Assembly: GCA_041640035.1 (NCBI GenBank)
Contig: JBEQBC010000001.1
Span: 160,001-224,000 of the forward strand
Origin: Candidatus Nanohaloarchaea archaeon
GTDB lineage: Archaea; Nanohalarchaeota; Nanosalinia; Nanosalinales; Nanosalinaceae
Length of the DNA stretch: 64,000 nt
Direction of reading: 5' to 3'
Shown one piece after another: positions 41,644-42,849 of the stretch; the stretch's first letter is position 1; each line of letters opens with the position of its first letter. The translations under genes and the position numbers were made by a program. A model generated the notes under the pieces. It was not told the DNA's origin. It saw only the letters and a list, made by a program, of their open reading frames with translations, and made no database searches.

Positions 41644-42849
41644 GTGAAACGAAGCCAGCTGTTCGCAACAATATCCAAGGAGGAGCAGTCAGGTCTAGAC
41701 TGTCGCAGCGCCGAACTGATGGTGAAAGCCGGACTGGTGAAAAACTTCGGCACCGGCACATGGAGCTACACACATCTAGGTGAAAAAGTACTCGAAAACC
41801 TGGAATCGATCATCAGGGAACAGATGGATGACATCGGTCAGGAGGTCCGGATGAACCAGTTACAGACCTCAGAGATCTGGAAGGAAAGCGGCAGATGGCA
41901 GAACTTCGAGGGAGAAGAGTTCTTCAACTTCAAGAACCGTGACGACAAGGACTTCACCATCTCCGCAACCCATGAAGAAGCAGCAACAGAACTCGCCAAG
42001 GACTACATCCGTAGTTACAGAGACCTTGACCTCACGATCTATCAGATAGGCAGGAAGTACAGGGACGACCATGCAAGAAAGGGCTTACTGAGAGCGAAAG
42101 AGTTCATTATGAAAGATGCCTACAGCTTCCACAGAGATCAGGAATCACTTGACCAGAAATACAACAAGTTCATCGAATCCTACACACGGATCTTCGAAAA
42201 GATGGGATTAGAATTCTCCAGGGTAGAAGCTGATAACGGATCGATGGGAGGCAACCGTTCCCATGAATTCATGGCAGAGTCTGAGGTCGGAAGCGACACC
42301 TACCTCAAATGCACGAACCAGGAATGCCGATACGCCTCCAAAGACATGGAAGTAGACAAATGTGAAGAATGTGGATCAGATCTCAGAAAGGTTAACGGTA
42401 TCGAGATAGGTCACTGCTTCCAGTTACAGCACCGGTACAGTGAAGCCATGGATCTAACATTCACAGATCAGAATGGAGAGGAACAAAATGTACTCATGGC
42501 ATCATACGGTATCGGTGTATCCCGCCTGATCTCAGCTATCATCGAACAAAACAACGATGAAAGCGGTATCACCTGGAATCGAAAAGTCTCAGCCTTCACT
42601 ACAGCCGTGATTGTAGCAGGTGAGGAAAAAGAACTGGTGGAAAAAGCTGATGAAGTTCAGGAAGCATTGGATGAAGAAGCTCTAATCTTTGATGGTGATA
42701 GATCTGTTGGAGAGAAGTTTGCTGAAGCCGACCTGATAGGTGTGAACAGGAAAGTTATCCTAGGTAACAACTACCTCGAAACAGGCAAGATCGAGGTAGA
42801 GACTAGGTCTGGAGAAACCACGGAGGTGGAGAAAGCCACGGATCTATAA
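41644..42849 (+). CDS. proS: Prolyl-tRNA synthetase, bacterial type (short, no full INS domain), proline-free
   Basis: WKESGRW, THEE, YQIGRKYRD, LLRAKEFIMKDAYSF, GIEIGHCFQL, SYGIGVSR, GEKFAEADLIG; GGTGA 6 nt before GTG. Confidence 0.92.
   Translation: MKRSQLFATISKEEQSGLDCRSAELMVKAGLVKNFGTGTWSYTHLGEKVLENLESIIREQMDDIGQEVRMNQLQTSEIWKESGRWQNFEGEEFFNFKNRDDKDFTISATHEEAATELAKDYIRSYRDLDLTIYQIGRKYRDDHARKGLLRAKEFIMKDAYSFHRDQESLDQKYNKFIESYTRIFEKMGLEFSRVEADNGSMGGNRSHEFMAESEVGSDTYLKCTNQECRYASKDMEVDKCEECGSDLRKVNGIEIGHCFQLQHRYSEAMDLTFTDQNGEEQNVLMASYGIGVSRLISAIIEQNNDESGITWNRKVSAFTTAVIVAGEEKELVEKADEVQEALDEEALIFDGDRSVGEKFAEADLIGVNRKVILGNNYLETGKIEVETRSGETTEVEKATDL

Follow-up and report, generated by a model that had tools for sequence, protein, structure and literature searches.

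A synthetase that needs its own product in order to be made is caught in a positive-feedback trap when the charged tRNA runs out. Can a gene be built to escape this trap? The question is raised by a prolyl-tRNA synthetase (ProRS) gene, ProRS_b, in the stretch of 64,000 nucleotides analysed here (the window; positions 160,001 to 224,000 of contig JBEQBC010000001.1). The DNA comes from a Candidatus Nanohaloarchaea archaeon, a tiny salt-loving symbiotic archaeon, whose genome (G000, the source genome) comprises 978,572 bases on 24 contigs, at 89% completeness. The window holds two ProRS genes:

41644..42849, plus strand: ProRS_b, a P-type ProRS with a GTG start, 401 amino acids and no proline.
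44382..45860, plus strand: ProRS_a, an archaeal-type ProRS of 492 amino acids with 23 prolines (TIGR00408, 582 bits against a cut-off of 437).

ProRS_a, which starts 1.53 kb downstream of ProRS_b, is the housekeeping ProRS. An earlier note on this DNA, made from the sequence alone, had set the lack of proline in 401 residues against the 23 prolines of the archaeal enzyme about 1.5 kb away, and our counts confirmed both figures; the observation of a proline-free ProRS_b is secure, and stronger than that note put it. The reading frame of the gene contains no CCN codon; the two alternative frames contain 24 apiece. Proline makes up 3.42% of the residues encoded by the 994 crude open reading frames (ORFs) of at least 100 amino acids in the source genome, and at this fraction the chance of finding none in 401 residues is (1-0.0342)^401, or about 9e-7. 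Given this proteome content and the normal number of CC dinucleotides in the other frames, we rejected chance and compositional bias. ProRS_b was the sole ORF of at least 200 amino acids without proline in this genome. Among the 471 ORFs of at least 250 amino acids, it alone lacked some residue other than tryptophan, histidine or tyrosine, in a scan that left out cysteine (129 of the 471 lack it). We consider it probable that ProRS_b is an emergency accessory enzyme, purged of proline under selection and placed behind a proline-codon leader that would induce it, possibly by a +1 ribosomal shift, when Pro-tRNAPro is short.

Aligned with 49 outgroup sequences, ProRS_b is non-proline at all 13 columns in which at least 50% of these sequences have proline (T9, H44, N71, A108, D129, E212, E241, A268, S297, N312, A317, V324 and N368), including all 7 columns with at least 90% proline. 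Most of the individual replacements proposed in the earlier note held (LPLG, MP..QP, GPTHEE, LPL, WP..IAP and GIP); the supposed change of RPR to HAR failed, since the nearest proline-containing relatives already read HAR. Screening the ORFs of the source genome for proline count, we found no proline-starvation regulon of further proline-free proteins. The other ORFs with 0-3 prolines encode mostly coiled-coil-like proteins, together with an ATP synthase E subunit, a VLRF1/eRF1-like protein and two proteins without a family. The VLRF1/eRF1-like protein is encoded outside the window (G000:C1:75028-75894, minus strand) by an ORF of 288 amino acids with one proline, and it resembles a release factor (VLRF1/eRF1 domain 2, PF18859, E=6e-13); it might serve in ribosome rescue and likewise be made when little proline is available.

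The absence of proline is conserved. We counted proline in the 120 best homologues of ProRS_b. Among the nanohaloarchaeal orthologues of at least 370 amino acids, which are 55-86% identical to it, 59 of 63 rows have no proline and the other 4 have one; shorter fragments have 0-2. ProRS enzymes of Halobacteriales (405 amino acids, ~50% identity) have 15-21 prolines and more distant homologues 9-24. The 11 orthologues that we took directly from genome loci (10 other genomes, of which G048 has two copies) all lack proline, and 8 extracted ProRS_a proteins (from 7 of those genomes and from G061, in which ProRS_b is split) have 20-24. A further proline-free member (P0029) is named by NCBI as Candidatus Nanohalobium constans, which suggests that a cultivated experimental system may exist.

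In a tree of 112 full-length rows, the 63 proline-poor rows form one side of a branch with full support (Shimodaira-Hasegawa approximate likelihood-ratio test, 100) and a stem of 0.32; their sister group of 40 rows has 9-21 prolines. When mapped on this tree, the relatives at 55-86% identity have 0-1 proline and normal content is confined to the ~50%-identical haloarchaeal clade, so that close homologues have not retained a normal proline content. Two of the four rows with a single proline (P0059 and P0062) are basal and keep it at the GPTHEE position, where the other 61 rows have alanine. In another row the proline comes second in an N-terminal extension that probably results from a wrongly called start, and P0056 seems to have truly gained one, at residue 363. 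Taken together, these rows suggest that the prolines were purged step by step, the most conserved one last. The proline-poor clade spans a tree length of 13.69 substitutions per site. In 200 LG+G4 simulations from a proline-free root, we obtained a mean of 3.4 prolines per tip, or 215 proline cells (minimum 117), against 4 observed; these simulations use generic LG exchange rates, and site-specific constraint would lower the expected gains, which counts against an adaptive interpretation. Because the simulated number is so far above that observed, proline-freeness is being maintained, not merely inherited.

Proline-free ProRS enzymes also occur outside this clade. We scored ProRS_b against 1.84 billion representatives and considered the best 150, among which were four further full-length proline-free enzymes (P0123, P0169, P0173 and P0214; 36-42% identity to ProRS_b), a proline-free fragment of 251 amino acids (P0122) and two sequences with 7 prolines each (P0134 and P0201). 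A tree of 83 rows puts P0123 on a long branch as sister to the nanohaloarchaeal clade (support 80); P0169 and the pair P0173 and P0214 fall elsewhere, amid proline-containing sequences. Parsimony requires three changes and the well-supported branches force at least two, implying at least two origins. As their proteins are not acidic, P0169, P0173 and P0214 come from non-halophiles. All four full-length sequences are single-member clusters; P0173 has no close relative, its best full-length match being 45% identical, and the nearest named loci to these orphans, at ~40% identity, belong to Omnitrophota or unclassified bacteria. None of 80 named genome loci (candidate phyla radiation (CPR), Omnitrophota, alpha-proteobacteria, Firmicutes and Halodesulfurarchaeum) encodes a proline-free ProRS, the minimum being 8 prolines. 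The absence of proline, which the earlier note had put down to selection, is thus clade-wide, actively maintained and of more than one origin, and an adaptive reading is well supported by these comparisons. A synthetase without its cognate residue would be the cleanest genetic escape from the trap described above, and such an escape appears to have been selected, to have recurred and to have a parallel in a lysyl-tRNA synthetase (LysRS), described below.

ProRS_b is an accessory gene. It is present in 14 of the 70 genomes of the phylum, all of them in one family (f1; 13 of 49 genomes besides the source genome, 10 of 32 genera). ProRS_a is above its cut-off in 56 of the 70 genomes and is matched (E <= 1e-10) in 27 of 28 high-quality genomes. 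Patchiness of this kind is common for resistance genes, and ProRS_b might be a constitutive second ProRS that confers inhibitor resistance or stress tolerance, its lack of proline being a side effect. There is a precedent in Bacillus thuringiensis, which has a P-type enzyme (BtProRS1) and an E-type enzyme (BtProRS2), both constitutive and different in halofuginone and stress tolerance, the extra copy being proposed to aid the cell under stress (abstract of PMC11229370). P-type enzymes differ from the halofuginone-sensitive E-type. The two cases share the presence of both types in one cell and a foreign type adapted to the host tRNAPro. However, our case is the reverse one, with the extra P-type enzyme in an archaeon; this enzyme lacks proline and follows a proline-codon leader, and the abstract describes no proline depletion in B. 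thuringiensis. We regard the resistance explanation as very unlikely: it does not account for 59 of 63 orthologues without proline where some 215 proline cells are expected, for the convergent proline-free lineages, or for the proline-codon upstream ORFs (uORFs) and the proline-free frame that follows them. Moreover, the sister enzyme works with 15-21 prolines, so that proline-freeness is not needed for catalysis or resistance.

The emergency-enzyme reading requires that ProRS_b be a working ProRS. It scored 399.2 bits against TIGR00409 (proS_fam_II), above the equivalog cut-off of 306.7, and below the cut-offs of NF006625 (431.7 against 558) and NF008979 (361.3 against 550), which model full-length and alpha-proteobacterial forms of ProRS. 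The class II core (PF00587, E=1.5e-34) and the HGTP anticodon-binding domain (PF03129, E=1e-9) are both present, and the best sequence match in the PDB, Enterococcus faecalis ProRS (2j3l, E=1e-90), aligns from residue 1. ProRS_b had no match to PF04073, the YbaK-like INS editing domain of ~130 residues, and is gapped against residues ~265-394 of 2j3l, which form this domain. Accepted ProRS enzymes such as 2i4l also lack INS, so that its absence is no bar to membership. In its place ProRS_b has an insert with four cysteines (C223, C228, C240 and C243, at columns at least 90% conserved), which nanohaloarchaeal, haloarchaeal and CPR-type enzymes have in common. On these domain matches, we class ProRS_b as a bacterial-type (P-type) ProRS without an editing domain.

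An AlphaFold2 model of ProRS_b had high confidence (pLDDT 93.1, pTM 0.92) and superposed on ProRS-adenylate complexes. The top 13 Foldseek matches to the model were all bacterial ProRS enzymes (E 1e-44 to 1e-39), including 2i4n (query TM-score, TMq, 0.94) and 2j3l (TMq 0.92). ProRS_b shares with the INS-less Rhodopseudomonas palustris enzyme (2i4l, 2i4n) its core and anticodon-binding domain (TMq 0.94; target TM-score, TMt, 0.85), and differs from it in sequence (~30% identity) and in the four-cysteine insert typical of the nanohaloarchaeal, haloarchaeal and CPR-type enzymes. ProRS_b shows that a class II synthetase can dispense with all of its 'invariant' prolines and keep the predicted fold. 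The ingroup keeps what we take to be motif 2 (YRDDHARKGLLRAKEF..KDAYSFH) and motif 3 (SYGIGVSRL), as well as the THEE motif and the anticodon-binding domain. ProRS_b retains 67 of the 83 non-proline columns that are conserved. We rejected the possibility of a pseudogene because the ORF is intact in 12 loci of 11 genomes and the ratio of non-synonymous to synonymous substitution (dN/dS) in close pairs is 0.07-0.09. These features support ProRS_b as a functional-looking ProRS under purifying selection.

The relatives and substrates of ProRS_b bear on what it would charge. The four Halodesulfurarchaeum genomes (G070-G073; loci L045-L048) have no archaeal-type ProRS above the cut-off and carry an INS-less P-type enzyme of 405 amino acids with 15-21 prolines, which seems to be their only ProRS and to have replaced the archaeal enzyme. 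Because no archaeal-type ProRS of Halodesulfurarchaeum exceeds the cut-off, this sister of ProRS_b apparently serves archaeal tRNAPro alone. Some Halobacteria seem to depend on the sister clade alone for their ProRS, and ProRS_b was therefore probably acquired horizontally. In the source genome (89% complete) we found only tRNAPro(UGG) and tRNAPro(GGG), and no dedicated bacterial-type tRNAPro; we infer that ProRS_b charges the archaeal tRNAs. Both of these genes have G1:C72 and A73. P-type enzymes normally use G72 and A73 (abstract of PMC11229370).

Has ProRS_b ceased to be a tRNAPro synthetase? It might instead serve in sensing or regulation, or charge another acceptor, and avoid proline so that its level does not depend on supply. 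The lack of the G72 element used by P-type enzymes, with which ProRS_b would have to cope, speaks for such a change, as do its scores below the two NCBIfam cut-offs and the NCBI name of several members ('aminoacyl--tRNA ligase-related protein'). ProRS_b also evolves faster than ProRS_a: across 28 genome pairs its mean identity was 64.7% against 82.3%, with dN 2.1 times higher, which could partly reflect relaxed constraint. We nevertheless think a lost function unlikely, given the equivalog score, the retained motifs, anticodon-binding domain and 67 of 83 columns, the superposition of the model on adenylate complexes, the seemingly sole ProRS of Halodesulfurarchaeum in the sister clade, and a leader family that otherwise precedes bona fide synthetases.

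The missing INS domain suggests another reason for avoiding proline codons. ProRS misactivates alanine and cysteine (according to a passage of PMC6344894), and an editing-less ProRS_b might mischarge tRNAPro with them. Wherever it dominated, proline codons would then be mistranslated, and an enzyme without proline would be immune to its own errors; the most conserved proline, that of GPTHEE, did become alanine in 61 of 63 rows. However, the source genome has two free-standing ORFs with YbaK/ProX-type editing domains, and INS-less enzymes that are apparently the sole ProRS of their cells (CPR, Omnitrophota and Halodesulfurarchaeum) keep 8-21 prolines. Mischarging also leaves the proline-sensing leader unexplained. 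It is compatible with an emergency enzyme; as the explanation in its place, it is improbable.

The emergency-enzyme reading rests further on the leader of ProRS_b, in which the earlier note had pointed to proline-containing uORFs. These are real and conserved, and across the leader family described below the key codon matches the downstream synthetase. The leader contains the following features:

41407..41418, plus strand: A/T-rich TATA-like box, ~29 nt upstream of the uORF1 ATG, in an aligned A/T-rich block.
41442..41480, plus strand: uORF1, encoding MNGGCVPRLQNF and a stop, with an SD-like (Shine-Dalgarno-like) GGTGG, 4 nt, GTC (P site) and the sensor codon CCT at 41460-41462.
41445..41503, plus strand: predicted helix (RNAalifold) between 41445-41452, in the 5' part of uORF1, and 41496-41503, between the uORFs.
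41530..41577, plus strand: uORF2, encoding MNYSTKGGRVPLTTN and a stop, preceded by SD-like GGTAT/GTGAT.
41561..41647, plus strand: transit frame, encoding HSRLTESKTDSVKQVSKSEINFSGGELL, the +1 frame from the second sensor, without proline; its TGA overlaps the GTG start of ProRS_b (GTGA).
41574..41594, plus strand: hairpin CTGAGTC-AAAAACG-GACTCAG, spanning the uORF2 stop codon, read by eye.

The TATA-like box is a candidate promoter of a leaderless leader transcript. A uORF2-type ORF (..S-T-x-G-G-[RYC]-[VI]-P..) was present in all 12 ProRS_b loci and a uORF1-type peptide (M-x-G-[GDE]-x-[VI]-P..) in 11. Each uORF has one cognate codon, the sensor, which is CCN in 23 of 23 uORFs with the third base free. 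Within uORF2 the order is GGTGGA, CGC, GTT (P site) and the sensor CCA at 41560-41562. An alignment of 11 leaders showed conserved blocks, among them an SD-like GTGAT before the uORF2 ATG and TCAAAAYC..TTnAA.

The reading frames of the leader are linked to one another and to the gene. From the second sensor, the +1 frame is open until an xTGA on the ProRS_b start in 11 of 12 loci. The distances from sensor to start (63, 75, 78, 84, 87, 102, 105, 132, 138 and 294 nt) are all multiples of 3, the frame being preserved despite many insertions and deletions. In all 10 captured loci, a +1 shift from uORF1 leads into the frame of uORF2 and to its stop. The transit frame contains no proline in 451 codons from the 12 loci. 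Two leaders (L013 of G062 and L018 of G036) have hairpin-rich insertions of ~55-60 nt directly after the uORF2 sensor (A1 columns ~242-300), of which that in G062 repeats a GCGTTCCAC box; both preserve the GG-Y/R-VP core and the +1 frame.

We propose that the leader couples sensing to expression by a +1 frameshift at a 'hungry' codon followed by termination and reinitiation, because its order of SD-like box, 3-4 nt, P-site codon and A-site codon resembles that of prfB. In prfB, which encodes RF2, an SD-like box, ~3 nt and a P-site codon precede a slow UGA in the A site, and the +1 shift turns the gene on. While Pro-tRNAPro is plentiful, the proline codon would be read, translation would terminate at the uORF stop far from the gene, and ProRS_b would stay off. 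When Pro-tRNAPro is scarce, the A site would be empty at the proline codon and the ribosome would shift by +1, as at the prfB UGA. It would then read the proline-free transit frame to a stop that overlaps the ProRS_b start, and reinitiate. The proline-free ProRS_b so made would recharge tRNAPro and break the loop that blocks synthesis of the 23-proline ProRS_a. Cognate codons would have been removed from the backup enzyme and from its lead-in frame because both are expressed mainly under shortage of charged tRNA. This agrees with the 'sense-and-rescue' module of the earlier note, which combined a proline-free enzyme with cognate-codon leaders, and which we extend below to other synthetases. 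As in prfB, the factor that decodes the slow codon is the product or target of the regulated gene. The two differ in that the slow codon here is a cognate sense codon, the shifted frame is a short transit ORF ending on a start codon, the product would arise by reinitiation and not as a fusion, and the frameshift is putative.

Leader-codon attenuation is known from E. coli pheST, his and trp, and proline-codon leaders from Salmonella mgtL and mgtP. The ProRS_b leader resembles attenuators and the T-box riboswitches of bacterial synthetase genes in tying synthetase expression to charging of the cognate tRNA, with a leader codon that sets the specificity, and differs in its single regulatory codon in a fixed context, in place of codon runs, and in its archaeal host. 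The leader lacks the hallmarks of a classical leader-peptide attenuator: each uORF has a single cognate codon, not several in tandem, and RNAalifold gave no alternative hairpins. Searching 41300-41700 with cmscan, we found no T-box (RF00230) or other Rfam family at E <= 1; at E <= 10 there were two chance snoRNA matches (E 3.6 and 4.6). RNAalifold on the 11 leaders gave one long-range helix and a 5-bp hairpin and no terminator/antiterminator pair, and no promoter or terminator scan was made. To our knowledge, no equivalent of T-box or attenuation control exists in Archaea.

The sensing could be real and its coupling to the gene something other than a frameshift: refolding of the RNA on stalling, transcription attenuation, or competition from an overlapping uORF with the GTG in the GGTGR box as its start codon. 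The helix that joins uORF1 to the segment between the uORFs covaries (8 pairs, 4 of them changed on both sides; its coordinates in the window are derived from alignment columns), and a 5-bp GUGGA..UCCAC hairpin containing the sensor is possible in uORF2. The hairpin over the uORF2 stop, which has analogues in other leaders (also read by eye), the conserved GTG in the +1 frame and the TCAAAAYC..TTnAA block, a possible promoter or terminator element, lend themselves to such coupling as well. However, simulated stalling left the accessibility of the SD and AUG unchanged, and we found no support for an SD sequestration that stalling relieves. Under scarcity, ribosomes stalled at the sensor would block the GTG and lower expression, the opposite of what homeostasis requires. 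In addition, the leader has the prfB order of SD-like box, short spacer, P-site codon and slowly decoded A-site codon. We regard a coupling without frameshift as doubtful, though a more serious contender than the explanations weighed above.

The ProRS_b leader belongs to a family. In the source genome its profile also matched upstream of ThrRS, a GATase gene and an ORF of 576 amino acids, and a wider scan placed the element before CysRS, class II LysRS, GlyRS and ValRS, all confirmed as these enzymes by NCBIfam. The context before the cognate codon was [GD]-[GDE]-[RCHY]-[FVIP] (loci L127-L256):

ThrRS leader, G000:C5:33030-33134: motif GGCF-T, in 21 of 29 f1 loci, all with Thr.
CysRS leader, G000:C1:150696-150782: motif SDRF-C, in 9 of 29 f1 loci, 8 with Cys and 1 with a doubtful Arg.
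Class II LysRS leader, G000: motif GDRF-K, in 9 of 17 f1 loci, all with Lys.
GlyRS leader, G000:C2:64519-64632: motif GECF-G, in 26 of 28 f1 loci, all with Gly.
ValRS leader, G000:C3:64231-64423: motif GGCF-V, in G000 only, with Val.

As the regular-expression scans miss leaders, the counts of loci without the motif (8 of 29 for ThrRS, 20 of 29 for CysRS and 8 of 17 for LysRS) are upper bounds. The Thr, Cys, Lys and Gly leaders of the source genome have the same frame layout with an ATGA overlap, and the Val leader has it roughly (stop at -9). Starts of ThrRS, GlyRS, LysRS and CysRS in other genomes were estimated from tblastn offsets, and relative to these the +1 stop lies within -1..+8 nt in 21 of 21 ThrRS leaders and within -9..+10 nt in 26 of 26 GlyRS leaders. 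In all listed leaders of ProRS_b, ThrRS, GlyRS, LysRS and CysRS, GGTGR or GTGAT ends 3-4 nt before the P-site codon. This codon is UUU in the Gly, Lys, Cys, Val and most Thr leaders, and UUU would retain 2-3 of its 3 pairs on re-pairing in +1. The remaining Thr leaders have CCC or CCU, and the ProRS leaders have GUU, GUC or AUU, for which re-pairing in +1 is poor. A proline-sensing uORF also precedes ProRS_a in three genomes without ProRS_b (G004, G011 and G040), suggesting that the leader is probably an ancestral control of ProRS; it was absent from all four Halodesulfurarchaeum loci.

One of these synthetases parallels ProRS_b. Class II LysRS of the source genome (G000:C1:242448-243887, outside the window) has 12 lysines, or 2.51% against 5.55% in the proteome; the class I LysRS of this genome has 33 (6.19%). 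The class II enzyme is accessory and occurs in 17 of 50 genomes. Among its 18 full-length orthologues (~478 amino acids; loci L179-L196), 14 have 1, 1, 3, 3, 3, 4, 4, 5, 7, 8, 8, 11, 12 and 14 lysines, with arginine raised in the lysine-poor ones, and the other 4 have 27-30. Judged by its composition, another accessory synthetase of bacterial type is thus losing its cognate residue in this phylum. The depletion goes down to a single lysine in class II LysRS and is complete in ProRS_b. Elsewhere in the source genome, the sole ThrRS is moderately depleted (2.96% against 5.44% threonine) and ProRS_a is not (4.67% against 3.42% proline). A two-tier design would fit these data, in which cognate-codon uORFs tune the synthetases and foreign backup enzymes for proline and lysine serve under shortage.

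Several observations weigh against induction of a rescue enzyme by frameshifting. The leader of one ProRS_b locus (L022, 1 of 12) violates the frame rule. Across the genome, 204 of 974 ORFs begin with an ATGA-type overlap to an upstream frame that is open over 60 nt or more, so that a stop/start overlap alone is ordinary, and the argument rests on the link between sensor and frame, kept through insertions and deletions. The mean unpaired probability of the SD..AUG region was 0.43 both free and with simulated stalling (11 leaders). The GTG within the GGTGR box, in the +1 frame, is a possible independent start, and GUU is not a classic slippery codon. Two members of the leader family, those of GATase and the 576-aa ORF, precede non-synthetase genes and have leucine at the sensor. 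ProRS_b is absent from several one-contig genomes, among them G032, G040, G050, G052, G058 and G065; with so patchy a distribution, its benefit must be conditional. Finally, a ProRS is useless if free proline is truly absent, so that charging capacity would have to be limiting, or the enzyme have a low Michaelis constant (Km).

Biosynthetic enzymes are known to use little of their cognate amino acid, and such a bias in synthetases has also been discussed (work cited in passages of PMC3937554 and PMC4695845). The principle is the same, in that proteins needed when an amino acid is scarce use little of it. By contrast, that bias amounts to a few tens of percent, and ProRS_b shows complete loss in ~400 amino acids, universal motifs included, across a phylum-level radiation. 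In open-access papers and bioRxiv (without supplements), we found no description of a proline-free ProRS or of any synthetase without its cognate residue, nor of a cognate-codon leader on archaeal synthetase genes; a review of archaeal recoding (PMC8211752) mentions neither Nanohaloarchaea nor prfB in the sections consulted. The leaders point to a previously undescribed, amino-acid-specific control of archaeal synthetase genes and give a way of testing which amino acids are limiting for host-dependent DPANN cells. More tentatively, with less conviction than we attach to the account of ProRS_b itself, we suggest a general ribosome-built sensor of tRNA charging that uses a prfB-like +1 shift for at least six specificities, joined to horizontally acquired, bacterial-type backup synthetases that lose their cognate residue, convergently and also in unrelated non-halophiles. 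If this is true, the sensor would fill in Archaea the role that the T-box has in bacteria, and ProRS_b (no proline) and class II LysRS (down to one lysine) would be starvation-proof 'starter' enzymes.

The two leucine-type leaders deserve a description of their own. One lies in the window at 60014-60121 (minus strand), where a uORF encoding MSVAITGGRVLQDEIHIYGQF has a leucine sensor and a TGATG overlap, upstream of the 576-aa ORF (58283-60013, minus strand), which has no Pfam or NCBIfam family. A similar leader (..GGRVLEHQ) precedes the GATase gene at G000:C1:238095-238775.

Adjacency of the two ProRS genes is not universal. They lie within 2.5 kb of each other only in G000, G045 and G053, and are 54-56 kb apart in G046 and G067. 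ProRS_b looks broken or partly duplicated in two genomes. In G061 (C3:571928-579344; L019, L023 and L025), residues 1-97 and 92-394 are in different frames and a second partial copy spans residues 219-393; G055 has an extra C-terminal fragment (L024, C7:587657-588001).

Two ORFs separate ProRS_b from ProRS_a in the window, one of 202 amino acids without a family and the following gene:

42913-43686: formate/nitrite-transporter-family gene.

Directly upstream of the ProRS_b leader, at 37642-41391 (plus strand), is an ORF for a leucine-poor, secreted or surface-type protein of 1249 amino acids, which begins with a signal-like segment and has a hydrophobic anchor at its C terminus. In G045, G053 and G054, too, ProRS_b is preceded by partial relatives of this protein. 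Directly after ProRS_a, an ORF of 523 amino acids (45903-47474, plus strand) has a reverse-transcriptase domain (PF00078, E=5e-16) and may have been inserted as a mobile or retroelement-like sequence; the G+C content at 46001-48000, which includes this region, is 0.368 against ~0.45 elsewhere.

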